Positions 9,487 to 58,037 of a DNA stretch of 64,000 nt are shown here, piece after piece; the stretch's first letter is position 1; every line of letters starts with the position of its first letter. The position numbers were made by a program, and so were the translations under genes. The notes beneath the pieces were generated by a model. That model had not been told where the DNA came from. It ran no database searches and saw nothing but the letters and a program-made list of their open reading frames with translations. This stretch comes from a bacterium (GTDB lineage Bacteria > Verrucomicrobiota > Kiritimatiellia > CAIVKH01), in assembly GCA_043802525.1 (NCBI GenBank), contig JAZDKY010000075.1, positions 267 to 64,266 on the forward strand. Direction: 5' to 3'.

Positions 9487-9503
9487 CTTGCACTTTCCTC
9501 GTT

Positions 9504-25048: not shown

Positions 25049-25687
25049 TCAGACTTTGAAGGCCGACGGGCAGAGGTCGTTCACGGAGCAGCCGGCGCAG
25101 TTCGGTTTACGGGCGAAACAGCAGCGGCGGCCGTGCCAGACGATGCTGTGCGACCAGGTGGTCCAGTCCTTCTCGGGCACAATCTCCCGAAGATCGAATT
25201 CGATTTTCACCGCATCGGTGTGTTTTGTGAAGCCGAGCCGGCCGGCGAGGCGTGTCATGTGCGTGTCGACGACGATGCCGGGCCGGTTGAACCCCGAGGC
25301 CATGAGCAGGTTCGCGGTCTTGCGGCCGATGCCGGGCAGCTCGCACAACGCGTCGAAATCGTCCGGGACCTTGCCGCCGAACTTCTCGTCCAGCACCGCA
25401 CACAGGGCGCGGATGTTCTTCGCCTTGTTGCGGAAAAAGCCGGTGGAGCGGATCTCGTTTTCCAGCGTCGCCTGGTCGGTCCCGGCCCAGGCTTTCGCGG
25501 TCCGGTACTTCTTGAACAGCGCGGGCGTGACCATGTTCACCCGCTTGTCGGTGCACTGCGCCGAAAGAATAGCCCCGATCGCCAGCTCGAGTACGTTGGA
25601 ATAGTCGAGCTCGCAGCGGGCGTCGGGGTAGGTCTTCTTGAGGCGCTTCAGGATTTCCAAGGCGCGTTTCTTGAGATCTCCGGCCAT
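25049..25687 (-). CDS. nth: Endonuclease III
   Basis: HhH-GPD LPGIGRKTANLLM, catalytic K, and the C-terminal 4Fe-4S cluster CCFARKPNCAGCSVNDLC. Confidence 0.9.
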   Translation of the reverse strand: MAGDLKKRALEILKRLKKTYPDARCELDYSNVLELAIGAILSAQCTDKRVNMVTPALFKKYRTAKAWAGTDQATLENEIRSTGFFRNKAKNIRALCAVLDEKFGGKVPDDFDALCELPGIGRKTANLLMASGFNRPGIVVDTHMTRLAGRLGFTKHTDAVKIEFDLREIVPEKDWTTWSHSIVWHGRRCCFARKPNCAGCSVNDLCPSAFKV

Positions 25688-42588: not shown

Positions 42589-42665
42589 CGGAGCGTAGCG
42601 CAGCCTGGTAGCGCGTCAGCCTTGGGCGCTGAAGGTCGAGAGTTCAAATCTCTCCGCTCCGACCA
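42589..42665 (+). tRNA. tRNA-Pro (anticodon TGG)
   Basis: Cloverleaf: acceptor CGGAGCG/CGCUCCG, D-arm GCGC..GCGC, anticodon stem UCAGC/GCUGA with loop CUUGGGC, T-arm GAGAG-UUCAAAU-CUCUC, 3' CCA encoded. 77 nt. Confidence 0.85.
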
Positions 42666-43004: not shown

Positions 43005-43289
43005 CTACAGAGAGAGGACAAGTCGCAAGCCGTCATCCACTTGCTGCATTTGTAGCGCGGATAATTTGCCCGATTGCTCGACAAGAAACTCTTTATCGAT
43101 CGTCACAATTTGGGAAACGCTTGCGACAGAATCTTTTGGAAGGCCTGTGCCTTTTGCTTTGATCAGCACATTCCCGGGTGCGTCAGCCAGCGCAAGGGTG
43201 TAGAGTTTGCTTCGGGTGAGGCCGAGTCTGCGGGCAACTTGTTCGGCAGCCTCGAAGAGGTTGTTCGGCACTGAAATGGCGGTCTTCAT
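43005..43289 (-). pseudogene. Degenerate MazE-MazF (PemI/PemK-type) toxin-antitoxin remnant; antitoxin N-terminus fused in-frame to toxin C-terminus
   Basis: MKTAISVPNNLFEAAEQVARRLGLTRSKLYTLALA is an AbrB/MazE-like antitoxin. It runs directly into GLPKDSVASVSQIVTIDKEFLVEQSGKLSALQMQQVDDGLRLVL, a MazF/PemK C-terminal half. The toxin N-terminal half is absent. Confidence 0.6.
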
Positions 43290-43434
43290 GCAGGGGAGTA
43301 TAACCGTAGTTATACCTTTGTCAAAAGCCCCAGCGATGGTATTGGGCGGCAAACTGAACCAGTACCGGTCAGCCAAACGGCTTGTCTCCCCGGGCCCCCA
43401 TAGCCTAGAGTCCGCAGGCATTTTCGGGGAAACC

Positions 43435-44472
43435 ATGTCACAGGAAACATTTGGAAGAATCCTGCTGGGTACGGCCGACGATCTCGGCCGGGCTCATGCG
43501 CGTTGGCAGCAACAGGCGGTCGATTGGGACCTCACCAACGGGCATTCACCTGCTCCGGCGCACCGCCAGCGGACGATCGCACGGCCCGTGTCCGTGGCTG
43601 GCCCGGGCACCTTCCTCGGCAAGGCGACCCGGACCCTTCGCTTCGAGCCGACCAACGAGCCGGGCTGGTGGTTCAGCCGCGAGGACCTGGGCGGCGATTG
43701 CCTTCCCGTGGCCGGATCCATCCGCAATGTGTGGACGATCGGCGATGTGGTCAGCAACATCGTCCTGCGCAGCGGACATCCGAGCAACTACATCCGTATG
43801 GTCGAGCATGTCATTGCGCTACGGCTCGGACTGGGCATCGACAACCTCATGATCCGCATGGAGTCCGGCGACCCGCCGCTGTTCAAACGGGGGAGTCTCG
43901 ACCTGATCGACGCGCTCGAGGGCGCGGGCATCGTCGAGCAGGACCTGCCGGTCAACTACTTCACCGTGAAGGAAAAAGTCAGCGTCGTCACGCCGTCGGG
44001 CAGTTTCCTGATCCTCTCTCCGTGTCGTCCCGGGGAGCTCGTGCTGAACCTCGACTGCGCGGTCGATTTCCCGACCGCCATCGGCAGGCAACGCATCCGT
44101 TTTCCGCTCACGCTCGAGCATTTCAAATACGGCGCGGAAGCGCGCACCAATACGTCGTTTGCCAAGATGCTGTTCTGCAAAACGATCGGCAAACTTTTCG
44201 CGGACATCCGCAACCTTGGCTACACGATGGACAACATTCTCGTCGCGGGCAAATCCGGCTACCTGAACGAGGCGAGACTCGTTCACGACGGGAAATCGCT
44301 CGAGGCGGTCTGGCACCGCGCGGTGCTCGACCTCGTGGCCGCGCTGGCCCTGGTCGAAAACGGGCGGTTTGCCGGTGACGTCGTTTCCTACTGCGCCGGC
44401 CACGGCCTCGACTGCCACATGGTGCGCCTGCTGTACAAGCACAACCTGCTGCAGCGCGTCGCGCCGGCTTGA
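43435..44472 (+). CDS. lpxC: UDP-3-O-acyl-N-acetylglucosamine deacetylase family protein (LpxC-like)
   Basis: KQRTIARPVSVAGPGTFLG..., VEHVIALRLGLGIDN (cf. LpxC TVEHLLAAL.GLGIDN), AGKSGYLNEARL. Confidence 0.65.
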   Translation: MSQETFGRILLGTADDLGRAHARWQQQAVDWDLTNGHSPAPAHRQRTIARPVSVAGPGTFLGKATRTLRFEPTNEPGWWFSREDLGGDCLPVAGSIRNVWTIGDVVSNIVLRSGHPSNYIRMVEHVIALRLGLGIDNLMIRMESGDPPLFKRGSLDLIDALEGAGIVEQDLPVNYFTVKEKVSVVTPSGSFLILSPCRPGELVLNLDCAVDFPTAIGRQRIRFPLTLEHFKYGAEARTNTSFAKMLFCKTIGKLFADIRNLGYTMDNILVAGKSGYLNEARLVHDGKSLEAVWHRAVLDLVAALALVENGRFAGDVVSYCAGHGLDCHMVRLLYKHNLLQRVAPA

Positions 44473-44856: not shown

Positions 44857-45285
44857 TTACTTGTTCCTTTGCGCTAGTCGTGCCTTGGTCATGCGCTCGC
44901 GGAGGCCGCCATCCTGGACGAAATTCTTTTCCAAGGCTGCGATCTGCCGGTCCAGGAGTGTGTTGGTGACCTTGATGAGGCCGAGAATGACATTCGAGCA
45001 GATCGCGGGATCCTCATGCTCAATGCCCTTCTTGAAGGTTCCGTAGTTGGCGCCATCGGTTCGGCAAAGCTTCGAGAGGCGTTTCGCATAACGATGCGTC
45101 TTTGGCCACGCCTCTATCCCGCGCGGCCTCATAAAATCGAGATAGTCGTTGAGGAGTTCCTCGAGACTGCCCCGCGCGACGTTGGTGAGTTTCAGTTCAA
45201 ACTCTTTCGAGGTTCCTGAAACCTGGCTGCCCTCCGCGATATTCTGTTTTCCAGACCTCGCAGCTTGAACCCGCCTTCGCCAAGG
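44857..45285 (-). pseudogene. N-terminally truncated four-helix-bundle (TIGR02436-like) gene with C-terminal suffix domain; no start codon upstream of the NIAEG motif
   Basis: The open frame reads ...SGKQNIAEGSQVSGTSKEFELKLTNVARGSLEELLNDYLDFMRPRGIEAWPK... The frame opens just after a TAG at 45286-45288 with no ATG before NIAEG. It is flanked by inverted GGGAC-type short repeats (44805-44850; 45437-45475). Confidence 0.55.
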
Positions 45286-45471
45286 CTACGGCGGGCAAGC
45301 CATCTGATCATGGGTCCGGCTCCGTTTGTCGATGAACCGGTCACAGAAATAGACCGTGGCATCATAGACAATCTCAGCCTTCTGAAACGAAAGCAGATCA
45401 CGATAGCCACCATGTGGCGGAATGAAGCGCTCAGTCACTTAGGTCCCTTCAGTCCCTTTCGTCCCTTCTTT

Positions 45472-46590
45472 TTACGGCAGGAACTTCCCTTTCTTCAGTT
45501 TCTCGGGCAGGTAGTGGTCCAAAACGAAATTCAGGCCGTGTTTGGCGAAGGCCTGCTGCTCGATGCGGACGCCGAGCTTGAGCATATGCTCGAGGGCGTG
45601 CTGCCATTCCTTGTGGTGCCGGATGAAGGGGTCGTTCTTCAGCGCGTCCTTCGCGCGTTTGATGTCGGCTTCTTCGAGCGGGTGTGTCGCATCCTCGAGT
45701 TTGTAGTCCGCGATGTCCTGCGGTGTGACACCGAGGTAGTGGACCTGCGGCACGCAGAAGAACCGGTTGATGTGCGCGGCCTGGCCGGAGCCGACCTTCA
45801 GCGTGCGGTAGATGTTGCAGTAGCCGTACGGGTCGCCGTCGGTGAAGGCCAGCACCGGCACCTTCTGGTCGTCCGCCAGCCGGCGGATGAAACGCCTGCA
45901 CGCGCGGGTCGGCACACCGCTCATCGAAATGAGAATGCAATTTGCCTTCTCATAATATCGGTGATGGACGAGGCGCTGGAAGAGCGACGCGGTCTCGACG
46001 GTGAGGATGAGCTTGGCCTTCGTCTGGAACCGCAGGTGCTCGACCCGCGAGGGGATGCTCCACGCGCCCGTGCCGAGCTTCGTGCAGTCGATCTTGATGT
46101 CCTTGCCCGTGGCGGGATCGCGGTCGATGACGACAAGCGGCCCGCACACGTCGCCGCCGCGCTCCTCGGGAATGTAGCCGAGCTGCTCGCGGTTGATCCC
46201 GAGCATCGCCTCGATGTCGTCCAGCAGCGTGTCGCTCTCCGGCTGCTCGTTGAACCGGCACTCACCCCAGCTCTTGCTGTTGTAATAAATCTCGCGCTTC
46301 CCCGCGATGTCGTCCTTGTCGAGCAGGTCGTTCTTCGTCGTCGACAGGAGCCGCATCGACTGCGCGAACGTCTTGACCGTGTTGTACGAGAGCGTCCGCG
46401 TCGCGACCTTGTTGAGGATCTCGAAATGCCCGCGCTTCGTGTCGTACTTCACGTTCGCGAGCGAGCGGATCGGGAACCGCATCGACGGCTTCCGTTTCTT
46501 CTTGATGATGTCGGTGTGGATATCGCCCGCCACGTCGACGATCTTCCTGGACGCGGCCTGCTTGGAAATGACTTCGGGTGCTTCAGCCAT
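45472..46590 (-). CDS. top6A: DNA topoisomerase VI subunit A (Spo11/Top6A)
   Basis: Catalytic-Tyr region GKREIYYNSK. Toprim E in LILTVETASLFQRL. DxD in VLAFTDGDPYGYCNIY. RBS AGGAGT; start MAEAPEV. Confidence 0.8.
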   Translation of the reverse strand: MAEAPEVISKQAASRKIVDVAGDIHTDIIKKKRKPSMRFPIRSLANVKYDTKRGHFEILNKVATRTLSYNTVKTFAQSMRLLSTTKNDLLDKDDIAGKREIYYNSKSWGECRFNEQPESDTLLDDIEAMLGINREQLGYIPEERGGDVCGPLVVIDRDPATGKDIKIDCTKLGTGAWSIPSRVEHLRFQTKAKLILTVETASLFQRLVHHRYYEKANCILISMSGVPTRACRRFIRRLADDQKVPVLAFTDGDPYGYCNIYRTLKVGSGQAAHINRFFCVPQVHYLGVTPQDIADYKLEDATHPLEEADIKRAKDALKNDPFIRHHKEWQHALEHMLKLGVRIEQQAFAKHGLNFVLDHYLPEKLKKGKFLP

Positions 46591-46609
46591 GGTATTACTC
46601 CTGATTTTT

Positions 46610-46740
46610 GACCGCAGAGGACCCGCCTTCGCCAATGACTACGGCGAGGCAAGCGCAGAGGCGCGCGGAGGTTCGGAAGTTCTCGGAAAACCTCTGCGCA
46701 TCTCTGCGTCCTCTGCGGTTCAATTCTCCCCCATTCAACC
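46610..46740. repeat. MITE-like element with (CTCTGCG)n / CGCAGAGG inverted termini and core CCCGCCTTCGCCAATGACTACGGCGAGGCAAGC
   Basis: The core motif CCGCCTTCGCC..CTACGGCG..CAAGC recurs at 42725-42780 and 45262-45300. The right arm recurs at 57990-58030. Confidence 0.55.
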
Positions 46741-46754
46741 AACCAAGCGCAAGA

Positions 46755-47543
46755 CTAGGAACAGGTCAGGCGGACTCCGAAGTAGGTGAAATTCACTTCG
46801 GGGTTGGTCTGCAACCGGGCGAACTCCCGCATCAGGTCGGTCTTGTCGTGTTCCGTGACATAGCCTTTGCTCATCAGGTTGTCCGCGCCGGACAGCAGCA
46901 GGGCATCGAGATAGTCGAGCCAGATGCGGCGCCGCTCCGGCTCGCGCCGCGTGTCGATGATCCGCGCCGGGGCGGCGCGAATCTCCCGCGCACCCGCGCG
47001 GCGCGCGAGGTCCTCTAGTTTCGGGCCGACGAACGGATCGCCGCCTGCTTCCTGCTGGAAGCGGTTGAACCGCGACCACCAGTCCGTGATGACGGCGCTT
47101 GGCGGATCAAACCGGAACGTGTTGTTGTCCACTTCCGTGCAGACCAGTTTCCCGCCCGGCTTCAGCACGCGCAGCGCCTCGCGCATCACGGTGACAGGAT
47201 CGGAAACGTGCTCGAGCATCCAGATCGTGATGACGCGGTCGAATGACGCGCCTGCGAACGGCAGGGCTGTCGCATCGCCCTGCATCAGGCTGATCGAGTC
47301 CGGCAGGCGCGCATGTCCCGCTGCGAGGTGGTCCGCGCTCCGGTCGAGGCCCGTCAGCTTCACGCCCGGCCAGCGCTCGCGGATGATGTCGAGTTCCGCG
47401 CCGACGCCGCACCCGATCTCGAGCAGGCTTGCCACGCCGGCCAGATCCCAGCCATCAAGAACGCCCGGCGCAAGAATCCTTGCCTGCGCGAAGAGCCGTT
47501 CCTGTTCGGCCTTTGAAAACCCATGGATGTAGTGTTCAGTCAT
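46755..47543 (-). CDS. Class I SAM-dependent methyltransferase
   Basis: Motif I LEIGCGVGAEL. Motif post-I/II DRVITIWMLEHV...LKPGGKLV. Confidence 0.8.
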   Translation of the reverse strand: MTEHYIHGFSKAEQERLFAQARILAPGVLDGWDLAGVASLLEIGCGVGAELDIIRERWPGVKLTGLDRSADHLAAGHARLPDSISLMQGDATALPFAGASFDRVITIWMLEHVSDPVTVMREALRVLKPGGKLVCTEVDNNTFRFDPPSAVITDWWSRFNRFQQEAGGDPFVGPKLEDLARRAGAREIRAAPARIIDTRREPERRRIWLDYLDALLLSGADNLMSKGYVTEHDKTDLMREFARLQTNPEVNFTYFGVRLTCS

Positions 47544-47870
47544 CTCTTAATCGTAATCTTAATCGTACTCGTAATCGTAATCATGATTAGCGCTCGTCGC
47601 CGGTCACATACGCAGCACCGTCCTCGTGCACCCGCCATGCCGAATTGCTCCTGATCAAGCCGGCCGGCATGGAAACAACGGCAAGGAGTCTTTATTCCCC
47701 TCGTGCAACGAGTTCAATGCAGGGGTTGTAGATATTCAGTTTCTCGTGGTCGAAGAGCTGTAGCATGAGGGGTGCTTCTGATGTGATTACGATTAGGATT
47801 AGGATTACGATTACGATTACGATTACGATTACGATTACGATTAGGATTGGGGCCGAGATTAGGATTATGA
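47541..47870. mobile_element. Hexanucleotide-repeat-armed element (left arm (CGTAAT/CTTAAT)n 47545-47585; right arm (GATTAC/GATTAG)n 47775-47862) enclosing a deleted four-helix-bundle gene remnant (47692-47769, minus strand, MLQLFDHEKLNIYNPCIELVARGE*)
   Basis: The arms are inverted tandem hexamers. The internal sequence CGTCCTCGTGCACCCGCCATGCCGAATTGCTCCTGATCAAGCC... aligns with the 55576-55650 junction of the intact copy. The remnant N-terminus aligns with MNSKPLFDHEKLEVYQLSIEF of the 55587-55982 gene. Confidence 0.6.
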
Positions 47871-47934
47871 GCGGAAGAAGTCCCGCAAAGTCCAGTTTGA
47901 TGTATTTGGAGTGTCGCGATATGGTGCTCCGCAC

Positions 47935-48588
47935 ATGGACAACCTGCGTGACCTGATCGCCAACAATCGGTCCTGGGCTGCGAAGATGGTGGGCGCCGAC
48001 CCGTGCTTTTTCACCCGGCTTGTGCGCCAGCAGTCGCCGAAGTACCTCTGGATCGGCTGCTCGGACAGCCGCGTGCCCGCGAACGAGATCGTCGACCTCG
48101 ATCCTGGCGAGCTGTTTGTTCACCGCAACGTTGCCAACATCGTTGTCCATACGGACCTCAATTGCCTGTCGGTCATCCAGTACGCGGTTGACGTGTTGAA
48201 GGTGGAGCACGTCATGGTGTGCGGGCACTACGGTTGCGGCGGCGTGCAGGCCGCGCTGCTCGACAGCAAGCTGGGCTTGATCGACAACTGGCTCCGGCAC
48301 GTCCGGGATGTGATGGACAAGAACGCCGCCGTGCTGGCCAACGTGCCGGACGAACGTCGCCGCATTGACAAGCTTTGCGAACTCAACGTGATCGAACAGG
48401 TTCTGAACGTCTGCGAGACCACCATCGTCCAGGCCGCGTGGGGCCGCGGGCAGAAGCTCGCCGTCCACGGCTGGATCTACGGCCTCGCAGATGGGTTGGT
48501 GCGGGATCTTGGAATGAGCTGTCGCGGTGAGTTGGAACGTGTTCCGGCCTACCACGCCGCCGTGGCCGCAGCGGCCGGCGGCGCCTGA
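47935..48588 (+). CDS. Beta-class carbonic anhydrase
   Basis: CSDSRVP, HRNVANIV, HVMVCGHYGCGG are the Zn-ligand motifs of beta-CA. Confidence 0.85.
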   Translation: MDNLRDLIANNRSWAAKMVGADPCFFTRLVRQQSPKYLWIGCSDSRVPANEIVDLDPGELFVHRNVANIVVHTDLNCLSVIQYAVDVLKVEHVMVCGHYGCGGVQAALLDSKLGLIDNWLRHVRDVMDKNAAVLANVPDERRRIDKLCELNVIEQVLNVCETTIVQAAWGRGQKLAVHGWIYGLADGLVRDLGMSCRGELERVPAYHAAVAAAAGGA

Positions 48589-48850
48589 ATGTTGCGCGAA
48601 GCCGGTGAAACTGTCGGAATTCATTACAAGTTTACACTTTCGCCCTTCCGCGCAGTGGTTGACCTGTCGAAAAGAATCACCTCTTATAACTTCCAAGGGA
48701 GCGGGTTACGGAAAGACGCATGAAAACGGTAGCCCGGTGGTGTGATATCTGCTGGCTGTGGCGCCGAGTCTATGCGTGCCATTGATGTGCGTTTGACGGA
48801 TCAAGCAATCTCAACATGAGGAACGAACCATGAGAGCCTACGGGAAGACC

Positions 48851-49504
48851 ATGCGGCTGATACCCTGCATCATCGCCATGCTAGCCATCGCCACTGTGCC
48901 GGCCATGGGCATTCCATGGATCAACGAATTCCATTATGACAACGTCAGCACCGACGTCGGCGAGTTTATTGAAATCGCCGGCGAGGCGGGGACGGACCTG
49001 TCGGATTACACCCTCTACCTTTACAACGGCACGGGCGGCGCGGTCTACGACACGCTCGCCCTCTCCGGTGTGTTGGCCGACCAGCAGAATGGGTTTGGCA
49101 CGCTGGCGTTCGATTATCCTGTGAACGGCATTCAAAACGGACCGTCGGATGGTTTCGCCCTTTTCGACAGTGACTCAGCGACGGTGATCCAGTTCCTCAG
49201 CTACGAGGGGTCGTTTACGGCAGTGGATGGCGTGGCCATCGGTCTCACCAGTACGGATGTTGGGATTGCCGAAACGACGCCAACTCCCGTCGGTCATTCG
49301 ATGCAACTCACGGGCACCGGAAGTCATGCGAGCGATTTCACCTGGTCGGGTCCCTTGGCGGCGACGAAGAACGGCGTCAATGCAGACCAGCAGTTCACAT
49401 GCGTGTCGGTCCCGGATTTCACGCCGACCTTGGGCATCCTCCTGCTCGCGTTGGCGGGGATGAGCGCGTTTCGCAGGCTCCCGGCAGGCTCACGCAGCGG
49501 TTGA
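48851..49504 (+). CDS. Secreted lamin-tail-domain (LTD) protein with a PEP-CTERM-like C-terminal anchor
   Basis: Signal peptide. INEFHYDNVSTDVGEFIEIAG..DLSDYTLYLYNG is LTD-like. C-terminal VPDFTPTLGILLLALAGMSAFRRL resembles a PEP-CTERM sorting signal. Confidence 0.55.
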   Translation: MRLIPCIIAMLAIATVPAMGIPWINEFHYDNVSTDVGEFIEIAGEAGTDLSDYTLYLYNGTGGAVYDTLALSGVLADQQNGFGTLAFDYPVNGIQNGPSDGFALFDSDSATVIQFLSYEGSFTAVDGVAIGLTSTDVGIAETTPTPVGHSMQLTGTGSHASDFTWSGPLAATKNGVNADQQFTCVSVPDFTPTLGILLLALAGMSAFRRLPAGSRSG

Positions 49505-49689
49505 CGCGAAGTCTGCTCCGCTGCCCCCGTCACTCATCTCATCGGTCCGTTGCGCTCCTGGGCCGTTGCCGTTGCCGGGCCTGCGAGCAGGCGAACCACG
49601 AGGGGCCCATGCGCCCGGTCGTTCTCGGTTTGCGTTGCGCCCTGATGGCGGTCATATTTCCTCAGGAGCGCCTGCGAGAGGAGGCGGTT

Positions 49690-50502
49690 GTGTCCCACAA
49701 GAACCACGACAAAGACGATGCGCACAAAGGGCTGCGCAAAAAGGATTACGAGAAGGAGTTGGCCAAGCTTCAACTCGAGCTGGTCAAGTTGCACGAATGG
49801 GTGCGGCACAAAGGCATGAAAATCGTTGTCCTCTTCGAGGGACGCGATGCCGCGGGCAAGGGCGGCGTGATCAAGCGGATCAGCCAGCCCCTCAACCCTC
49901 GCGTCTGCCGCGTCGTCGCGCTTGGCGTGCCGACGGAGCGTGAAAAGACGCAGTGGTATTTCCAGCGCTACGTGCAGCATCTTCCCGCTGCGGGCGAGAT
50001 GGTGTTGTTCGACCGCAGCTGGTACAACCGCGCGGGCGTCGAACGCGTCATGGGTTTCTGCACCGAGGAGGAATACCAGGAATTCCTGCGGGCCTGCCCC
50101 GAGTTCGAGCGGATGCTCATCCGTTCCGGCGTCATCCTTATCAAGTACTGGTTCTCCGTCAGCGACGAGGAGCAGGAGCAACGGTTCCAGGCCCGCATGG
50201 AAGACCCGACGAAACATTGGAAGCTGAGCCCGATGGATGTGCAGTCGCGCTCGCGATGGATCGACTACTCCAGGGCCAAGGACGTGATGTTCGCACACAC
50301 GGACACGAAACTCTCGCCCTGGTTCGTGGTGGAGGCCGACTGCAAGCGGCGCGCGCGGCTGAACTGCATTGCCCACCTGCTGAGCATGATTCCGTACAAG
50401 GACGTGACGCCGGTGCCGATCAAGCTTCCGCCCCGCCAGCCGCGCAAGGGTTACGAACGCCCGCCAAAGTCGGATCAGACCTACGTGCCCGAGAAATACT
50501 GA
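49690..50502 (+). CDS. ppk2: Polyphosphate kinase 2 (start assumed GTG with RBS GAGGAGG; alternative ATGs at 49609 or 49645)
   Basis: LELVKLHEWV..KIVVLFEGRDAAGKGG (Walker A), FDRSWYNRAGVERV, the lid-loop region and the overall PPK2 length. Confidence 0.8.
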   Translation: MSHKNHDKDDAHKGLRKKDYEKELAKLQLELVKLHEWVRHKGMKIVVLFEGRDAAGKGGVIKRISQPLNPRVCRVVALGVPTEREKTQWYFQRYVQHLPAAGEMVLFDRSWYNRAGVERVMGFCTEEEYQEFLRACPEFERMLIRSGVILIKYWFSVSDEEQEQRFQARMEDPTKHWKLSPMDVQSRSRWIDYSRAKDVMFAHTDTKLSPWFVVEADCKRRARLNCIAHLLSMIPYKDVTPVPIKLPPRQPRKGYERPPKSDQTYVPEKY

Positions 50503-50546
50503 TCAGAAACTTCAACCGTGGTTCAATTCTTCCTTCGGAACTCCAT

Positions 50547-50915
50547 ATGCGATCACCCATCAATGTTCTCTTCGTCTGCGGACGCAACAACCGGCGCAGT
50601 CCGACCGCCGGGAGGATCTTCAAGCGCGACCGTCGCATGAACATCCGCGCGGTCGGTTTGGGCGACACCAGCCCGCGGCGGGTGAAGGAAGCCGACCTGC
50701 GCTGGGCCCACCTCGTGCTCGTCGTGGAACGGAAGTACGCCGGCCGCCTTCGGACGGCCTTTCCAAACGTCGACCCGTTCCCGCCCATCGAATCCCTCGA
50801 CATCTCCGACGAGTACACCTTCATGCAGCCCGAACTGGTGGACCTCCTGAAATCCAGCGTGGCATCCGCGTTGGAGACCTATTACGAAGACCGGGTGGGC
50901 GATGGTTCTCCTTAG
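50547..50915 (+). CDS. Low-molecular-weight phosphotyrosine-phosphatase/ArsC-like small protein (CX5R(S) P-loop); paralog of 54657-55055
   Basis: VLFVCGRNNRRSPTAG is the LMW-PTP CX5R motif. Only about 120 aa long. Confidence 0.55.
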   Translation: MRSPINVLFVCGRNNRRSPTAGRIFKRDRRMNIRAVGLGDTSPRRVKEADLRWAHLVLVVERKYAGRLRTAFPNVDPFPPIESLDISDEYTFMQPELVDLLKSSVASALETYYEDRVGDGSP

Positions 50916-51204
50916 CCGGGCGTTCGTACCGGTCGGGCTCTGCGAACTGAAGTTGCAGGACCGTACGGCCCCCGGCGGTGGCCGGTTCGTTCGGAGCGGA
51001 AAGTTTTAGCCGCAAAAGAACGCAAAGAATCCGCCCCTTATTGCCCGTTATTTCTGAGGGCTATGGGGGTGGAGCCTCTTTGCGCTCCTTCGCGGCTCAA
51101 ATTCGTGACGATTCGTGTCCATTCGTGGTTTGCTTCTCCGTGTAAGGTTCCATCTTTCACTTCGAGTTCTTGACTCATAATAGTATGTCACGTATGTACA
51201 GATC

Positions 51205-51771
51205 ATGAACGTGATCCGGTCAGCCCGGGAACGGCGCGGCTATTCGCAACGGGAACTGGCGAAACGGGCTGGTGTTTCGTTCCGCTGCGTCCAGCAATTG
51301 GAACGTCCCGGGCACAACTGGAGCGTCTCGAGCCTGAAGCGTGTCGCCCGAGCCCTGGCCGTGCCCGCGGGAGGGTTGCGCTATCACTTGGACTATCCCT
51401 TTAGAATTCCGCCCGATTCGATCGAGGACATTTCGCTGCGCATCCATGGCGAGGAGTTTTCCTCGTGGAAGCTTCACGTGTTCAACTTCGTGGACCGTTT
51501 CCGGGCGACGCGTGACCCGGACCTGATCGCCAGGCCGCCCATGCCGGAACTGGACCCGCGCCTGCACGCCTTGTTGGCCGGCGTGGTGGAAACGCTCTGC
51601 GCGGAAATCGATCGGTCGGCGCCGTCCTGGTGCGCCGGGATAGATACACTTCCCGAGCCGTGGTTCGTCGCCGGTATTGAGAACCTGAAGCCCGCGGCGC
51701 TCGTTGAATCGCCGGTTCGTTTCAGGACGCGGAACATCTTCGTGCTGGGGAACTTCCTGGAGAGGGCATAG
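51205..51771 (+). CDS. XRE-family HTH protein with an uncharacterised C-terminal domain
   Basis: N-terminal RRGYSQRELAKRAGVSFRCVQQLE. The 130-aa C-terminal domain has no recognised motif. Confidence 0.6.
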   Translation: MNVIRSARERRGYSQRELAKRAGVSFRCVQQLERPGHNWSVSSLKRVARALAVPAGGLRYHLDYPFRIPPDSIEDISLRIHGEEFSSWKLHVFNFVDRFRATRDPDLIARPPMPELDPRLHALLAGVVETLCAEIDRSAPSWCAGIDTLPEPWFVAGIENLKPAALVESPVRFRTRNIFVLGNFLERA

Positions 51772-51778
51772 CGCCAAC

Positions 51779-52291
51779 ATGTTGGATAACGCGACCATCC
51801 AGAAACTCTTCGAAGCCCTGAACCGGGCGCTCAAGGCCCGGAAGGTCGTGGGTGAAATCGGTCTCTGCGGGGGCGCGGTCATGTGCGTGGTTTTTGAAGC
51901 CCGCGTGTCGACCAAGGACGTCGACGGCATTTTCGAACCCACGTCGGAGATTCGAAAAGCGAGCCGGGAAGTCGCCCGTGAGATGGGCGTTCCGCAGAAC
52001 TGGCTGAAGGACGTCGCGAAGGCCTATTTCCTGAGCGATCCGCCGCGGGTCCCGGTCATGGACCTCTCCAACCTGCGCATCTGGGCCCCGAGGGCCGACT
52101 ACATGCTGGCCATGAAATGCGTATCCGCCCGGTTTGACACGCACGATACCGACGACGTGAAGTTCCTGGTCCGTCATCTTGGACTGAAAAAACCGGGCGA
52201 CGTCTTCGAGATCGTGGAGAAGTACTATCCCCGGAAGCAGGTTCCGTCCAAGACCCAAATCCTGATCGAGGAAATCATGCAGAAAAGCTAG
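51779..52291 (+). CDS. Minimal nucleotidyltransferase (Pol-beta fold; MntA/AbiEii-like)
   Basis: GLCGGAVMCVVFEARVSTKDVDGIF fits hG[GS]x9-13DxD. 8 nt downstream of the XRE gene, so probably co-transcribed. Confidence 0.55.
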   Translation: MLDNATIQKLFEALNRALKARKVVGEIGLCGGAVMCVVFEARVSTKDVDGIFEPTSEIRKASREVAREMGVPQNWLKDVAKAYFLSDPPRVPVMDLSNLRIWAPRADYMLAMKCVSARFDTHDTDDVKFLVRHLGLKKPGDVFEIVEKYYPRKQVPSKTQILIEEIMQKS

Positions 52292-52451
52292 CCGCGAAAA
52301 ACACAAAAATAAACGCCCCATAACCCTCGGAATTTCGAAGGTGGGTCATGGGGGTGGGGGTTATGGTGTTTTTCGTGGCCATTCTGCGCTATTCCGCGCC
52401 GGCCCTTTCAAGCTCTCGTGTCCACTCATACGCGAACCAGGGCTGTTCGCG

Positions 52452-54290
52452 TCAGCGCAGTCGGCCGCGGGATACCCAGTCCTTGCGCGGGAAAGCGTGA
52501 AAGATCATGCGGCTATCCTCCTCGCGCACGAGGATGCGCGCTTTACCGCGCTTCAGCTTGCGCCAGTAGAAGCCGCTGATGGATTCGTGCGGCAGAAGAG
52601 CTCGCGTGACAGGTGACATGGACGCGTAGTAGTCGAGGGCGCTGGTCAGACTTTCGGCCGGAATCGGAAGGGTGGGGAGATGCTCGCGTATCCAGCTTGA
52701 CGTGTCAGTCCCGGGGCTATCGTCGTTCCACACAAGGATTTTCGCCTGTGCAAGGCCGTGTCCAGGGTCCCGCACCATGTGCCACACGCGTACCACGGGG
52801 GCGGCCGGTTCGGGGGGCAGGGGCGTCGCGTCGTCCTCCGCCAGATCGAGATGCTGCTCGATCGTCCTGGAGACCTCCGGCTCCGGCGGCAGGTGGAGAT
52901 CGAAAATCGACACGGTTTGGCCGGCGGCCTGTGTGCATCGGCAAAGAAAATCCAGATTCTCCAGCATGAAAGGTTCGGACCACTGCTTCCAAAGTTGGCG
53001 AATCAGCGCGCTCTGGTCGTCATTCAGCGGAACGAAGGGCGTATCCGGGCGCATGTTGGACAGCGATATTTCCTCGGCCACCATCCGAAGCACCTGCGCG
53101 TCCGGCGCGTTGTCCAGCGCGGCCTGGGTAAAAAGACGGCGGGTTCCGGCGTGATGGGGCCCGCGCAGATAGGGCGCGATGTGGCGTGACAGCGCCGTCC
53201 TCGTTTTCTCGCCCTCGCGCGTCACGGGCATGCGGATGAGCTTCGAGGGATGGTTGAGCATGTCGGCGAGGAGCGGTCGCACCCAGGGTTTGAGCCTGTC
53301 GCCTGAAATCCCGTCCGTCCGGGCGAGTTCCTGAAACAGAGCCACGTACCAGAAGCATTCGCTGGTGGAGATCATCCCCGCAGCTTCATCCGACATGTTG
53401 TCGGCAAGGGTGTACCGTTCCCTTTCTTTCCGGGCGAGACCTCTCAGTTGAGTGCACATGTTGGTGCGCATCTTCGCCAGGAGGAGGAATACGTGAAAGT
53501 CCATGGCTGTTTTCTTCGGATCCAGTGCCTGATCGAGCGTCTCGAACAGAAAAGTTTCCGTCATTTCCACGCGGTGGACGATCTGGTTGTAGCCTTCCGC
53601 GGCGTCGCGGAAGATCGGCATCAGCGTCTCCATGCGATGCCGGGCCTCGACGAGCAAGGCGTCCAGCGATTCGGCTGGATCCTCGACATCCAGGAGCAAA
53701 ACGGCCGCGTCATCGGAGAAGGGCAGGACCAGCAGCAGGATATCCCGCGGGGCGAGCGTGGGCGCGAAGTCCTCGGCGAGTTCCATGATAAAATCAGGAT
53801 TGCAGGCAAAAGCTGTCAACAGCGGGCTGTTGGCGGTCAGCGTCATACTGCGGCGGAACTGGTCCAGGCAAATCCGCTCCCTGTCCTTGTCGTCATCGAG
53901 CAGGGCGGAGATGGCGTCAATCGCATCAAAACCGAACCGGTCGATATGGTATTTGATTCCTCCGCACCAATGGAGAAAGTCGCGTAGGGCGTCCGACGAT
54001 GCGACGTCCCGGGCCCGTGCCAGGTCAAATACCTTGGCGACCGTTGAAAGCAGTGTCAGGTCCGATTCGGCATAGACCAGGTCATCGCCGGTCCCGAGCC
54101 ACTCGACCATGGCGGCGCGAAACCGGGTTTGGATTTTCAGCGACTTGGGCGACGCCAGCCAGGCTTGGAGGCGCCTCCGGCTCTCCGCGTAGCCGGCCAG
54201 TGCCCTGCTGACGTGTTCAGCCCCATACCGGGCCGACGAGAATGCCATTGGCCACGGCTGGATAAAAGTGGGTCGTGGTTTCTTGCTCAC
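52452..54290 (-). CDS. Hypothetical 612-aa cytoplasmic protein, no recognisable domain
   Basis: Long ORF with protein-like composition and no TM or signal peptide. No catalytic motif recognised by eye. Confidence 0.4.
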   Translation of the reverse strand: MSKKPRPTFIQPWPMAFSSARYGAEHVSRALAGYAESRRRLQAWLASPKSLKIQTRFRAAMVEWLGTGDDLVYAESDLTLLSTVAKVFDLARARDVASSDALRDFLHWCGGIKYHIDRFGFDAIDAISALLDDDKDRERICLDQFRRSMTLTANSPLLTAFACNPDFIMELAEDFAPTLAPRDILLLVLPFSDDAAVLLLDVEDPAESLDALLVEARHRMETLMPIFRDAAEGYNQIVHRVEMTETFLFETLDQALDPKKTAMDFHVFLLLAKMRTNMCTQLRGLARKERERYTLADNMSDEAAGMISTSECFWYVALFQELARTDGISGDRLKPWVRPLLADMLNHPSKLIRMPVTREGEKTRTALSRHIAPYLRGPHHAGTRRLFTQAALDNAPDAQVLRMVAEEISLSNMRPDTPFVPLNDDQSALIRQLWKQWSEPFMLENLDFLCRCTQAAGQTVSIFDLHLPPEPEVSRTIEQHLDLAEDDATPLPPEPAAPVVRVWHMVRDPGHGLAQAKILVWNDDSPGTDTSSWIREHLPTLPIPAESLTSALDYYASMSPVTRALLPHESISGFYWRKLKRGKARILVREEDSRMIFHAFPRKDWVSRGRLR

Positions 54291-54354
54291 GAGTGTGCTG
54301 CATAGCCGGTCCGCCGCTCCATTTCAAGCCGGCGATTCGGAGAGGCGGGTACGC

Positions 54355-54490
54355 AGGTCGGATGGTCACGAAGACGCACCGGCCTTCGCCCCGCCTCGGA
54401 GGCGGGACTTCGGTGAGGCAAGCAAGAGAAGGCCGCCCTTGGAACCCGGGGATCTCTTCTTCGTGCTTCTTGTGCCTCTTCGTGGCTATC
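54355..54490. repeat. MITE-like element, homolog of the 29790-29975 copy
   Basis: TCACGAAGACGCACCGGCCTTCGCCCCGCCTCGGAGGCGGGACTTCGGTGAGGCAAGCAAGAG...CTTCTTCGTGCTTCTTGTGCCTCTTCGTGGC. Confidence 0.6.
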
Positions 54491-54656
54491 TCTGTTGCTG
54501 CTTTACTGTTTCTTCCATTTGGACGGATATGAGGCAGGCTTGCCCTCATGAACCATCATCAATGTGCCACGTGCCCCGTCCCGCCTTGGCGGGCAAGTGT
54601 GACGCGGCTACAGGCAAACATTTAACGCCTTGGCGGGATCTGCTACGCTCCGGTTC

Positions 54657-55055
54657 ATGGCTGGTCCTCTCAACGTCCTCTTTGTCTGCGACAGCAAGAA
54701 ACGGCGCAGCCCCACCGCGGAGCGAATCTTCAAGCGGGACCGCCGGATGAACGTCCGCGCGGCGGGCGTTGGTGACAGCAGTTCGTGTCGCATGAAGGAA
54801 GGGGACCTGCGCTGGGCCCAGCTCGTGCTCGTGATGGAGCGGAAGTACGCCGGGCGACTTCGGGCGGCCTTTCCGAATCTCGATCCATTCCCGCCCATCG
54901 CATCCCTCGATATCCCCAATGACTACGCCTTCATGCAGGAAGAGCTGATCCAACTCCTGAGAGTCACCGTAACCGCTGCCTTGGCCGCCTATCACGCCGC
55001 TGAAGATTCAACCACGAATGGGACCCGCCTCCGTCCTGCTTCCGACGCGGGTTGA
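54657..55055 (+). CDS. LMW-PTP/ArsC-like small protein, paralog of 50547-50915
   Basis: LNVLFVCDSKKRRSPTAERIFKRDRRMNVRAAGVGD. About 70% identical to the first copy through the first 100 aa. Confidence 0.55.
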   Translation: MAGPLNVLFVCDSKKRRSPTAERIFKRDRRMNVRAAGVGDSSSCRMKEGDLRWAQLVLVMERKYAGRLRAAFPNLDPFPPIASLDIPNDYAFMQEELIQLLRVTVTAALAAYHAAEDSTTNGTRLRPASDAG

Positions 55056-55140
55056 TTCGTGGTTGAGCTCCCGATTTCGCGAAGCGCGGTTCACTTTCGC
55101 GCAAGTAATTGCAGATCAAGCTGAGTCGTAGCGACCCAGG

Positions 55141-55575
55141 GGATGTATGTCCTCCGCCTCGTAATCCTAATCCTAATCGTAATCGTAATCCTAATCGTAC
55201 TCGTAATCGAATATCCTCGTGCCGCCATGGCCGGTATCGGAGAGTGCAGAGCGGTTATGGCCCGGAGTTTCGATTTCGATTACGATTAGGATTACGATTA
55301 CGATTAGGAATCAGATGTAGACATGGGCCTTGTCGAGCATCCTCTTCAGAGTGCTGACGAGTCTTCGACTCGTCTTTGTCCTTCAGGTCGAGGGCGAGGT
55401 GGGGGGCTATGTCCTCCGCCTCGTAATCCTAATCCTAATCCTAATCGTAATCGTAATCCTAATCGTACTCGTAATCGAATGTCCTCGTGCAGCCATGGCC
55501 GGTATCGGAGAGTGCAGAGCGATTATGGCCCGGATTTTCGATTACGATTACGATTACGATTGGGATTACGATTGG
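55141..55575. repeat. Two tandem units of about 170 bp (55141-55310; 55421-55575), each hexamer inverted arms (CGTAAT/CCTAAT)n ... (GATTAC/GATTAG)n around a 65-bp core, separated by a degenerate copy of the topoisomerase VI-B 3' end (55316-55415)
   Basis: The units are over 90% identical. The core reads GAAT[AG]TCCTCGTGC[CA]GCCATGGCCGGTATCGGAGAGTGCAGAGCG. The 55316-55415 segment aligns with 56109-56215 (shared TCCTTCAGGTCGAG, TCGAGCAT; translates LDLKDKDE.. against LDLKEKDEDRIVKDLKKMLEKTHLEV). Confidence 0.7.
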
Positions 55576-55586
55576 GAGGGCAAGCC

Positions 55587-55982
55587 TCATCCCCACGTTG
55601 CGCTGTCTTCATGAACGCGCATGGGCGAATTGCTCTTGATCAAACCAACAAGCATGGAGACGATCCGCGCCAGCATGACCTTGCCCTCGACGATTGCATC
55701 TGCATCCACTTTCCTTTTCGCGACGAGAACGTCGAGACACGCCGCGCATTCCAACGCCGATCCTCGCGCTATATCGAAAAAGCGACACCGGTCGTTTTCA
55801 GTGTAGCGGCCATTGCCTTCAGCCGTGTTCAGCGGAATGGAGGTGGAAGCCCGATCAATATTGTCGCGCGCAGCAAGCGTACGCGGGACATCAGCTACGA
55901 TGGGTTCTAGCCAGGCGATGAATTCGATGGAGAGTTGGTAGACTTCGAGCTTTTCGTGGTCGAAGAGAGGTTTGGAATTCAT
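55587..55982 (-). CDS. Four-helix-bundle protein (TIGR02436 / 23S rRNA intervening-sequence protein family)
   Basis: 131 aa. FDHEKLEVYQLSIEF...IPLNTAEGNGRYTENDRCRFFDIARGSALECAACLDVLV is the family signature. Confidence 0.75.
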   Translation of the reverse strand: MNSKPLFDHEKLEVYQLSIEFIAWLEPIVADVPRTLAARDNIDRASTSIPLNTAEGNGRYTENDRCRFFDIARGSALECAACLDVLVAKRKVDADAIVEGKVMLARIVSMLVGLIKSNSPMRVHEDSATWG

Positions 55983-56059
55983 GGTCTTCCCTCCGTTTCG
56001 TAATCGTACTCGAATTCCGTTCCTGCCGCTCCGTTCGGTGGTGAGGGACGTAGGGCGTT

Positions 56060-56106
56060 TATACTTCTGATATTCGATTACGATTACGATTACGATTACG
56101 ATTACG
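56060..56106. repeat. (ATTCGATTACGATTACG...)n hexamer array, right arm of the element, abutting the top6B stop codon
   Basis: ATTCGATTACGATTACGATTACGATTACGATTACGAATCAG. Confidence 0.7.
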
Positions 56107-56108
56107 AA

Positions 56109-57875
56109 TCAGACTTCCAGATGCGTTTTCTCGAGCATTTTCTTGAGGTCTTTGACGATCCGATCTTCATCCTTTTCCTTCAGGTCGAGAATCTGCCTCA
56201 ATCCCAACGCAAGGTGCGGGATGTAGAGCTCGATGTAGTTCTTCTTCCTCGCTTCCTCCAACTCGCGGTTGCGTTTGTGGAGGAAGACGGACAATCGCCG
56301 ACCGCATTCCTGCAGGCCTAGTGTGATCTCATTGAGGATTTCCTGGTAGCTGGCGAGGGCGTCCTTGCTCTCGCTTGTGAACGGGACCCAGACGCTGGCC
56401 ATGTGGATCATCAATACGACCGGGCCTTGCGGCAGCCCGTCTCTGGGCTGGTTCAGGCCGTACGATTTCCAGTTTACGCCGCACGTCGCTTTCGTGATCG
56501 CGCAGGCGCCGGGCTGGTAGAGCAGAGGAACCCGGTTCGCAAATCGCAGCAGCCGCACGGGCTCTTCCTTGCCCATGTCCTGGTCGGTATTTTCCGAGGG
56601 TCGCGTGTACGCGACGCCGATCTCGATCTGAAACGGGTTGCCGCGGTAGACCGACGGGTCGCGCGTGAGGGACGTGAAAAAGTCGGCTTTGAATTCTTTC
56701 TGCAATCCCGCAAGAATCTGTGTCTCGCCAATCGGCGACAAACAGTCCGTTGGTGGCCGCATCAACTTCGTTTCCTGGATCGCCTTGTACAAGGCCTCGG
56801 CTTCCTGGTGCGCGACGCGGGTCGGGTTCGCTTTCGGGTTCAGGCCGGCGCGTTCGCAGATCTGCAGCGCGGTGCCGGTACTGACGCGGGAGAAGTCGGT
56901 CGACAACGCCCCGCGCAACGTGCGCGATTCGGAGTCCTTCAACATCTGCATCAGCATCCCGATCTCCACGCCGTGCGGATGCGGCATGATCTCCTGCGCC
57001 GGCAGCGGGACCTGTTTGGTGGCACGGAGGTAGGTGATGCGGAGTTCTGCTTTTGCTGGTTTTTCATCCGATGTAGGCCGCGTGACCCCACGCGGCGCGG
57101 ACCCCGCCGGGTCGGCGACCCGGCCTACAACGAGACGGTAGTGCAGCGTCACATGCGGGTTCACGATCGCGCACTGCTTCACGAATTCGTCGACGGACTG
57201 CTTGCCCCGCTGGTACGCGGCTTCCATGTCGATCGAGACACACGTGCCGTGCTTGTACGTGGAGGCTTCCCCGTCCGATTTCCCTTCCGCGTTCACGGCT
57301 TGGAACGTCGGCAGCCACTCGGCTTCCTCGTCGGTCAGGATGGTAGGCTTATTCTGGCGCGTATCGATCTGCACGGCCATGGAATGCGCCTTCTTGCTGC
57401 CCGAAATCTTCGACAGGATGCGCGTCGACGAACCGGTCGTGAGCTGGCCGTACATGCCCGCTGCGCTGATGCCGATGCCCTGCTGGCCGCGCGACATGCG
57501 GAGGCGGTGGAATTTCGAGCCGTAGAGCAGCTTCGCGAAAATCTTCGGGATCTGGCTCTTCACGATGCCGGGCCCGTTGTCGGTGATCGTCACGCGGAAC
57601 CGGCTCTCGGAAATCTGTTCCAGGTCGATGGAAAGTTCGGGGAGGATGTGGGCCTCCTCGCATGCGTCGAGCGAGTTGTCGACCGCCTCCTTGACCGCGG
57701 TCAGCAGCGCGCGGCGCGGGCTGTCGAACCCGAGCAGGTGCCGGTTCTTGAGGAAGAATTCCGAGACCGATATGTCGCGCTGCCGCGCGCCCATGCTCTC
57801 GGCGGTCTCGACCTTCGGTTCCTTCTTCGGCTTCGGTGCCGGGGCTGGAGGGGACGGTGTGGGCGCTTTCTTCAT
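56109..57875 (-). CDS. top6B: DNA topoisomerase VI subunit B (GHKL ATPase)
   Basis: Bergerat-fold motifs EAVDNSLDA (N box), ITDNGPGI (G1), KLLYGSKF, SRGQQGIGISAA (G2), followed by H2TH and transducer regions. Start MKKAPTPSPP. Confidence 0.85.
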   Translation of the reverse strand: MKKAPTPSPPAPAPKPKKEPKVETAESMGARQRDISVSEFFLKNRHLLGFDSPRRALLTAVKEAVDNSLDACEEAHILPELSIDLEQISESRFRVTITDNGPGIVKSQIPKIFAKLLYGSKFHRLRMSRGQQGIGISAAGMYGQLTTGSSTRILSKISGSKKAHSMAVQIDTRQNKPTILTDEEAEWLPTFQAVNAEGKSDGEASTYKHGTCVSIDMEAAYQRGKQSVDEFVKQCAIVNPHVTLHYRLVVGRVADPAGSAPRGVTRPTSDEKPAKAELRITYLRATKQVPLPAQEIMPHPHGVEIGMLMQMLKDSESRTLRGALSTDFSRVSTGTALQICERAGLNPKANPTRVAHQEAEALYKAIQETKLMRPPTDCLSPIGETQILAGLQKEFKADFFTSLTRDPSVYRGNPFQIEIGVAYTRPSENTDQDMGKEEPVRLLRFANRVPLLYQPGACAITKATCGVNWKSYGLNQPRDGLPQGPVVLMIHMASVWVPFTSESKDALASYQEILNEITLGLQECGRRLSVFLHKRNRELEEARKKNYIELYIPHLALGLRQILDLKEKDEDRIVKDLKKMLEKTHLEV

Positions 57876-58037
57876 AGGGGCACAGCGTAGTTTCCAACGA
57901 TTGGAAAAATCACGAAGAAAAGTTCCAAGCGTTGGAAGAAATTGAACCACGGAGGGAAGAGGAGGTTCTGGAGACCGGGCTCGCCATTCCCCAACCTCCG
58001 CGAACCTCTGCGCCCTCTGCGGTTCAAATTGATGCGG

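Follow-up and report, generated by a model that had tools for sequence, protein, structure and literature searches.

A 64,000-nucleotide (nt) stretch of contig JAZDKY010000075.1 (assembly GCA_043802525.1; the whole stretch is referred to as the window) contains the genes for both subunits of DNA topoisomerase VI (topo VI), which lie on the minus strand and are not adjacent. The top6B gene (56109-57875) encodes a subunit B of 588 amino acids (aa) with a GHKL ATPase, an H2TH region, and a transducer domain, and the top6A gene (45472-46590) encodes a subunit A of 372 aa with a 5Y-CAP domain and a Toprim domain. The gap from the stop codon of top6B to the start codon of top6A measures 9,518 nt and holds a methyltransferase gene, a block of further genes, and, at both edges of this block, elements with arms of tandem hexamers. 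The first-pass annotation of this DNA had viewed the separation as the trace of an accessory island in a former operon. The separation is real, but it cannot be maintained as an event of the window genome, because the two genes are also split in the closest relative, where the gap is 16,175 nt.

Identity and host of the topo VI genes

Top6A matched three Pfam families above their cut-offs (PF21180, 192 bits; PF20768, 61.5 bits; and PF04406, 49.0 bits against a cut-off of 26) and Top6A of Methanocaldococcus jannaschii (1d3y; E = 2.4e-104, 352 bits). The catalytic tyrosine motif of the 5Y-CAP/TP6A_N domain, REIYYNS, is aligned to REAYYVS of 1d3y, and the Toprim glutamate (VETAS) and DxD motif (FTDGDPYG) are likewise kept. 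Top6B matched PF09239 (186 bits), HATPase_c (PF02518), and PF13589 in Pfam, two NCBIfam models (NF003218, 621 bits with a cut-off of 274; TIGR01052, 470.7 bits with a cut-off of 380.7), and Top6B of Methanosarcina mazei (2q2e_B; E = 2.3e-142). Its GHKL N-box (KEAVDNSLDA) and G1 and G2 boxes (DNGPGI and GQQGIGISAA) align with those of 2q2e_B, and the switch lysine of the transducer domain is kept in the segment FTSESKDA, which has the same sequence in M. mazei. The protein is also 100% identical to one annotated by NCBI as topo VI subunit B in a metagenome-assembled genome (MAG). The subunit calls of the first-pass annotation, which had left them to be checked by profile search, thus passed the Pfam, NCBIfam, and PDB comparisons, and by all sequence-testable criteria the enzyme of the window is a member of the topo VI family.

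Like archaeal and bacterial topo VI (type IIB, A2B2; 1D3Y and 2Q2E), the window enzyme has full domain sets and catalytic motifs in both subunits. It differs from topo VI of M. mazei in that its genes are non-adjacent and in that its Top6B is devoid of the Ig-like C-terminal domain (588 versus 621 aa; the alignment ends near residue 505). In some archaea, top6A and top6B are unlinked; a check of the literature with the locus tags of M. jannaschii returned nothing on this point. The Top6A score against M. jannaschii given above compares with 202 bits against M. mazei and 141 bits against Sulfolobus shibatae, a bias that agrees with the bacterial cluster placed beside Methanococcales in a published survey and with horizontal transfer from archaea. 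In that survey, topo VI was described as sporadic in bacteria, with 17 families and one bacterial cluster next to Methanococcales (Allen and Maxwell 2024, PMC11302465), and Kiritimatiellia, the host group concerned here, are not mentioned in its main text. In 2009, three bacterial genomes were known to contain topo VI (PMC2647321).

The best matches of both Top6A and Top6B are from MAGs labelled Kiritimatiellia, Verrucomicrobiota, or Lentisphaerae, among which Top6A is 82-93% identical; on the basis of these matches, the host is a Kiritimatiellia-like bacterium of the Planctomycetes-Verrucomicrobia-Chlamydiae (PVC) group, represented by a MAG. With each GTDB species represented by one genome, a pattern-limited scan found topo VI relatives at 241 species-level loci, and the number of matching database proteins exceeded 8000. 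As judged from this distribution, topo VI is a conserved core enzyme and the norm in the Kiritimatiellia-like clade. The earlier remark that it is uncommon in bacteria is correct in general (PMC11302465) but not for this clade, where the enzyme is standard. Neither gyrase nor topoisomerase IV is encoded within the window. In one related locus (L027), a divergent gene for a type IIA topoisomerase A subunit (1862-3937, minus strand; 691 aa; PF00521, 358 bits) adjoins top6A, so that this genome encodes both type IIA and type IIB enzymes.

Gene order around top6A in related genomes

Every gene of the region was compared by tblastn with 80 related loci, each extending up to 10 kb on either side of top6A. 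In 60 of them, top6B immediately precedes top6A, at a distance of 31-1168 nt. The upstream sequence was too short to judge in six loci, leaving 74 informative ones, and in 14 of these no top6B is found directly upstream of top6A (10 of the 14 have none within 8-10 kb). Because the two genes are adjacent in 60 of the 74 informative loci, adjacency is regarded as the ancestral state, in agreement with the former operon proposed in the first-pass annotation. The loci without an adjacent top6B are spread over several separate clades in a neighbour-joining tree of Top6A. Five of them (L003, L004, L012, L013, and L054) show the arrangement def-GT2-UbiA-(Phd/PIN)-top6A and contain no top6B within 10 kb. 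In L089, which belongs to a lineage with no top6B within 10 kb, a PhdYeFM antitoxin/PIN toxin gene pair (9196-10004) immediately precedes top6A, with a 4-nt overlap between the PIN gene and the start of top6A; L090 and L004 are alike in both respects.

The closest relative of the window (92% identical in Top6A and 83% in Top6B) is represented by a 221-kb contig of the Joint Genome Institute (JGI), Ga0620842_0000020, in which top6B (100741-102513) and top6A (83444-84565) are on the same strand. Its layout, top6B-4HB ... carbonic anhydrase-methyltransferase-top6A ... LpxC (4HB, four-helix bundle), agrees with that of the window in order and strand: top6B is followed at once by a PF05635-type gene, the carbonic anhydrase gene is divergent, and past top6A lie first a long 4HB-like gene and then, farther away, a convergent LpxC gene. 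The amino acid identities of the edge genes between the two genomes are 74% for the carbonic anhydrase, 64% for the methyltransferase, and 75% for LpxC. No gene of the interior common to both was detected by tblastn, and the interior in the relative contains genes for GH116, glutamate synthase, COX1, an epimerase, and others. Where Top6A identity is 91%, relatives have the order top6B-4HB-top6A-..-LpxC (L087 and L002) or top6B-GxxExxY-top6A (L086). The comparison of spacing and content that the first-pass annotation had called for showed that the genes are adjacent without the block in most relatives and that the closest one keeps the edge genes with another gap length and another interior. 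The same split with the same edge genes in the closest relative suggests that it arose in the common ancestor of the two, 3′ of the 4HB gene and upstream of top6A. From these alignments, the split is old and inherited and is not specific to the window genome, and break-up of the operon is recurrent in the clade.

The methyltransferase gene of the gap (46755-47543, minus strand) is co-oriented with top6A and lies upstream of it; as had been supposed, it encodes a class I S-adenosylmethionine-dependent methyltransferase (PF08241, 79 bits). In the closest relative, its orthologue ends 18 nt before top6A, which suggests co-transcription, whereas the corresponding gap in the window is 164 nt long and holds a palindromic element. 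The block that follows contains, on the plus strand unless otherwise stated, genes identified with Pfam and NCBIfam for a β-carbonic anhydrase (47911-48588; in the same position in the closest relative), a PEP/PFE-CTERM-like protein (48830-49504), PPK2 (within 49399-50502), a low-molecular-weight (LMW)-phosphatase-like protein (paralogue 1, 50529-50915), an XRE-type helix-turn-helix (HTH) protein (51205-51771), and a second LMW-phosphatase-like protein (paralogue 2, 54630-55055), as well as orf195 (51704-52291) and orf612 (52452-54290, minus strand; NCBI hypothetical protein V1929_06250). Apart from the carbonic anhydrase gene, none of the interior genes at 47911-55055 was found near top6A in any relative among the 80 loci. 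The two LMW-phosphatase-like paralogues bracket the XRE-type HTH gene, orf195, and orf612; they share 70% aa identity and form a 300-nt DNA repeat (79% identity) in direct orientation, and a sub-threshold LMWPc match was obtained for one of the two. The product of orf612 had no match in Pfam, NCBIfam, PADLOC, or PHROGs, and a word-indexed search returned the protein itself alone, whereas an exhaustive HMMER search found 67 remote relatives; their lengths are similar, and conservation among them is greatest over the C-terminal ~70-100 residues.

Directly 3′ of top6A is a long 4HB-like gene (44860-45426, minus strand) with 76% aa identity to the gene at the same place in the closest relative, whose 199-aa product gives a weak PF05635 match. 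The copy in the window is broken by a 30-nt insertion, GCTTGCCCGCCGTAGCCTTGGCGAAGGCGG, with an in-frame TAG at 45286-45288, and is probably a pseudogene, as judged from its reading frame. A near copy of the 30-mer is present in the 5′ region of top6A (46620-46655). Further downstream, an LpxC-family gene (43207-44472, plus strand; PF03331) is convergent with top6A and serves as a conserved synteny anchor, being found in the same relative position in 18 related loci. At its annotated 5′ end, the LpxC-family open reading frame (ORF) is overlapped by that of a PemK/MazF-like toxin (43005-43436, minus strand), just beyond which is a tRNA-Pro(TGG) gene (42589-42665, plus strand); both are a few kb from top6A, past LpxC.

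Spacer cassettes and hexamer-armed elements

In three relatives with adjacent top6 genes, the whole top6B-top6A spacer is a single cassette composed of a (GTAATC)n arm, a PF05635 4HB gene, and a (GATTAC)n arm (L002:9446-9985; L087:6024-6560; and L010:9405-9945). In the minimum-free-energy fold of the L002 spacer, the arms pair as a 33-bp stem around the ORF (z = -4.2). Complementary arms are also found in L087, L010, and L015 (9495-9985); in L015, the 4HB gene has (GTGCTN)n/(NAGCAC)n arms. Spacers of 400-1200 nt hold small genes in 18 related loci. They include PF05635 4HB genes (L002, L010, and L015), PF13366 GxxExxY genes (L006, L008, L011, L018, L021, L026, L043, and L048; also L086), and genes for an IS200-like Y1 transposase (L050), a PIN toxin (L031), and a MazE-type antitoxin (L028). 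The GxxExxY genes are flanked by inverted arms of AACGCAAAGGCGCAGAG-type repeats. By these features, the cassettes are made up of tandem-repeat inverted arms enclosing a 4HB or GxxExxY/PD-(D/E)xK gene, and there are ORF-less derivatives as well.

All 14 spacer cassette copies are co-oriented with the top6 genes, and of the 21 non-redundant 4HB or GxxExxY genes found in 1.43 Mb of top6 loci, 19 are immediate neighbours of top6A or top6B. A naive binomial test of this concentration gives p < 1e-8, a value inflated by the relatedness of the loci and by sampling that covered only ~20 kb around top6A in each genome; relatedness also means that there were fewer events than counted copies. The type of cassette at a given site differs between sister taxa, which suggests repeated turnover. 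Intervening sequences of 23S rRNA with a four-helix-bundle ORF, which RNase III cuts out of the transcript, were first described in Leptospira. The cassettes resemble them in having a PF05635/TIGR02436 ORF inside inverted repeats that fold as a long stem, and differ from them in occupying an mRNA operon spacer or intergenic site and in having arms of tandem hexamers. No rRNA is present in the window, where an Rfam search found only tRNA-Pro. Because the cassettes lie between protein-coding genes and not in rRNA, they do not have the defining feature of 23S intervening sequences.

In the window, (GATTAC)3 with up to three mismatches has 40 matches, every one of them inside 47547-47850 or 55161-56111, compared with 0 expected from shuffled sequences, and the (GATTAC)n/(GTAATC)n arrays are confined to 47545-47866 and 55159-56110, at the two edges of the block. 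The hexamer-armed elements that the first-pass annotation had placed at both edges are thus present, as direct co-oriented copies, and they form four inverted-arm elements (e1, h2, h3, and h4). The e1 cassette (47545-47866, minus strand) consists of two arms enclosing a deleted 4HB pseudogene (47610-47757). It corresponds to the L002/L087 type of cassette with an internally deleted 4HB gene, the 4HB stop codon and downstream arm being collinear with theirs (~32 nt of the arm are identical); this arm abuts the methyltransferase start codon in the window and top6A in L002 and L087. The h2 element (55159-55310) is an ORF-less hairpin (-78 kcal/mol, z = -8.0; none of 200 shuffled sequences was as stable), and h3 (55421-55582), also without an ORF, consists of an arm, a 47-nt core, and an arm and is 93% identical to h2. 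Immediately next to the stop codon of top6B is h4 (55998-56107), in which a core separates a short arm of the (TCGTAA) type from a (GATTAC)5 arm. Three of the four elements fold as ~45-bp stems (z = -6.7 for e1), whereas h4 is a weak hairpin (z = -1.2). The starts of h2, h3, and h4 are 268 nt and 536 nt (= 2 x 268) apart, which may be a coincidence or the trace of a 268-nt tandem duplication that took place before the 4HB gene came between h3 and h4.

An intact 4HB gene encoding 131 aa (55587-55982, minus strand; PF05635, 65 bits; TIGR02436, 60 bits), of the 23S rRNA-intervening-sequence protein family, lies between h3 and h4. It is the orthologue of the spacer genes of relatives, with 63-65% aa identity to those of L002 and L087 and 58% to that of L010. 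The two 4HB copies of the window are about 72-74% identical over their retained parts. Between h3 and h2 is a decayed duplicate of the last ~95 nt of top6B including the stop codon (psi-top6B, 55312-55405, minus strand). The existence of this duplicate, noticed in the first-pass annotation, was borne out by alignment to the resident 3′ end (55275-55360 versus 56073-56158, 78%, including the adjoining arm; 55370-55392 versus 56167-56189, 87%). The duplicate has an 18-nt deletion and a frameshift, and its conceptual translation reads PHLAL/DLKDKDES/..LVSTLKRMLDKAHVYI up to the stop, as compared with IPHLALGLRQILDLKEKDEDRIVKDLKKMLEKTHLEV and a stop in the resident gene. In a test for a foreign allele, it scored 86 with the resident top6B and 76-81 with those of relatives, near-equal values that do not discriminate. 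The pattern of a top6B 3′ end followed by a hairpin is consequently present twice, 797-798 nt apart, on either side of the 4HB gene, and is read as a probable product of local duplication or of recombination among hairpins.

No hexamer arms were found in 43 kb of sequence of the closest relative. Because this relative is without arms, and because the carbonic anhydrase gene inside the bracket and the methyltransferase gene outside it are both common to it, the hexamer arms do not mark the original insertion edges. The proposal that the hexamer elements bound inserted DNA was accordingly abandoned; arms with a 4HB gene are an ordinary occupant of the spacer in L002, L010, and L087.

Palindromic hairpins of another kind, without ORFs and with CGCAGAGG-type arms, are located upstream of both top6 genes. 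One (57945-58032, minus strand; core motif at 57993-58027) lies in the 5′ intergenic region of top6B and folds at -42 kcal/mol (z = -3.3), and the other (46630-46730, minus strand; core motif at 46689-46723, with a small hairpin at 46622-46655) lies between the methyltransferase stop codon and the top6A start codon. The core motifs form a 35-nt direct repeat of 89% identity; three copies are present in the window against 0 expected, the third being near 24979 (24970-25060). The arms have the form TTGAACCGCAGAGGxCGCAGAG, a type also seen on either side of the GxxExxY cassettes of relatives. That the 35-nt motif is a duplicate of a promoter or operator was considered and was rejected as the primary reading, the motif being a palindromic hairpin arm of the GxxExxY-cassette type with a third copy elsewhere in the window. 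A pattern scan did not find the motif in the loci of the closest relative (L081-L085). The hairpins 5′ of top6A and top6B could be co-regulators of the split genes or passive repeats.

Probable history of the split operon

The earlier view of the block as the footprint of an insertion or duplication is correct insofar as the DNA now between the top6 genes of the window is not at that place in relatives of the adjacent type. It fails in other respects: apart from the hexamer elements not being insertion edges, no integrase, recombinase, or transposase gene was found among the ORFs of 46.7-56.0 kb with Pfam, NCBIfam, PADLOC, or PHROGs, and the GC content does not deviate (0.58-0.62 across 47-55 kb versus about 0.56-0.67 in the rest of the window). 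A defence island or prophage was also considered and rejected, since PADLOC and PHROGs gave generic HTH and methyltransferase matches only. Flanking repeats are present in the form of direct cassette copies and psi-top6B, and interior genes are absent from relatives, yet the carbonic anhydrase and methyltransferase genes are common to the closest one. The block is like integrative islands at the 3′ end of a gene in its direct repeat of such an end (psi-top6B), its variable cargo, and its patchy occurrence among relatives; unlike these islands, it has neither an integrase or excisionase gene nor a compositional shift, its edge genes are vertically shared with the relative, and the duplicated 3′ end brackets only ~0.7 kb (the 4HB cassette) and not the island. 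By these searches, the block is a variable region with no recognisable mobile element.

Both topo VI genes are under purifying selection. Between the two split genomes, the ratio of nonsynonymous to synonymous substitution rates (dN/dS) is 0.12 for top6A and 0.16 for top6B at a dS of 0.5-0.8, and 0.34 and 0.27 for the flanking methyltransferase and carbonic anhydrase genes. Together with the intact catalytic motifs, this selection suggests that the enzyme is still made, and topo VI is probably produced from the unlinked genes, with assembly and activity presumed.

The following history is considered likely for these ordinary topo VI genes. The ancestral state is a top6B-top6A operon, the spacer of which often holds one co-oriented 4HB or GxxExxY cassette with inverted arms of short tandem repeats. 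In the common ancestor of the window genome and its closest relative, an insertion carrying at least the carbonic anhydrase and methyltransferase genes would have entered between the cassette and top6A. The interior would later have been fully replaced, leaving unrelated genes over 7 kb in the window and different ones over 13 kb in the relative. The hexamer-armed elements would be copies or derivatives of the spacer cassette that multiplied locally at a later time, and one local cassette duplication would have taken along the last ~95 nt of top6B. At present, expression of top6A would most likely accompany or directly follow that of the methyltransferase gene, top6B would be expressed from its own 5′ region, and the A2B2 enzyme would be assembled from separately transcribed subunits.

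Several points weigh against this history. Only one sampled lineage has this particular split in common with the window. Intermediate states were not found, and when metagenomes were scanned with the methyltransferase, all homologues obtained had 46-59% identity and none was beside top6A. For the 13 other non-adjacent genomes, the presence of top6B elsewhere in the genome was not established. The order of events, with either the carbonic anhydrase and methyltransferase genes or e1 coming first, is ambiguous, because a loss of e1 on the side of the relative and a gain in the window are equally parsimonious. Scans for sigma-70 promoters and intrinsic terminators around both top6 genes gave results no better than those for shuffled sequences. 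Finally, the window is part of a MAG contig with 50-60-nt repeat arrays at both edges of the block, and a local misassembly of the interior is conceivable.

A misassembly in which the interior was misjoined across the hexamer arrays and the genes are really adjacent, is very improbable. Near-identical repeat arrays at both edges of a block in a MAG would invite such an error, but the arrays, which are not the same in sequence, measure only about 50-60 nt, the junctions of the methyltransferase gene with top6A and of top6B with the 4HB gene are independent of them, and the independently assembled relative (from three JGI samples) has the same split with the same edge genes. It is also improbable, though somewhat less so, that a translocation or inversion moved one of the genes away from the other, their order on the same strand being coincidental. 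Relocation fits lineages such as those with def-GT2-UbiA-(Phd/PIN)-top6A better than insertion does, since the upstream neighbourhoods of top6A there are entirely different and no top6B is found within 10 kb. In the window and its closest relative, however, top6B is kept upstream on the same strand with its 4HB neighbour and top6A keeps its LpxC anchor, and restoring that order would take two independent rearrangements.

Cassette-mediated (Campbell-type) integration in the window lineage only is less improbable than either of these, although it is still regarded as unlikely. A circular DNA with a hexamer-armed 4HB cassette would have recombined with the resident spacer cassette, leaving direct copies at both ends of the 47.9-55.1 kb block; this corresponds to the footprint view of the first-pass annotation. 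In favour of this reading, the block does have direct co-oriented cassette copies on either side, namely e1 (47545-47866) and, at 55159-56107, h2-h4 together with the 4HB gene; the arm on the downstream side of e1 runs collinear with the one that abuts top6A in L002 and L087, and hexamer arms were not found in the closest relative. The two 4HB copies, however, share only about 72-74% identity over the parts retained, and no recombinase gene was found in the block. Moreover, the carbonic anhydrase gene inside the bracket and the methyltransferase gene between e1 and top6A are orthologous to, and placed as, those of the cassette-less relative, from which it follows that the split predates the bracket or is independent of it.

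A wider role of the cassettes is proposed tentatively. The top6B-top6A junction may be a preferred landing or retention site for hairpin cassettes of the 23S intervening-sequence type, which would be co-transcribed with the topo VI genes and possibly processed at the stem so as to uncouple the cistrons; recombination between copies could then repeatedly open, and finally split, the operon.

Break-up of the gyrBA operon after horizontal transfer has been described in Thermotogales and, according to the authors, in many other lineages (Villain et al. 2022, PMC9348778). As in that case, a heterotetrameric type II topoisomerase acquired as a two-gene operon was later separated, in poorly conserved surroundings, with both genes retained. 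The Thermotogales genes differ in belonging to the IIA family and in occupying distant loci, whereas the genes described here are on the same strand, 9.5-16 kb apart, and split at a cassette-occupied spacer. The split is thus real but ordinary, both topo VI in bacteria and the falling apart of heteromeric topoisomerase operons after horizontal acquisition having been documented already.

These results indicate that topo VI belongs to the core enzymes of an uncultivated PVC class and is highly conserved there, with Top6A retaining the identity range given above across many species. The natural series from a tight operon through a spacer cassette to a 9.5-kb gap and a 16-kb gap could be used to study subunit stoichiometry after unlinking. 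Beyond the split itself, the lead of note is the concentration of cassettes at the topo VI genes. If this is confirmed genome-wide, the topo VI genes would be the first site outside rRNA to be described for the small bacterial genes of 23S intervening-sequence-type cassettes, a class that is very abundant and poorly understood.

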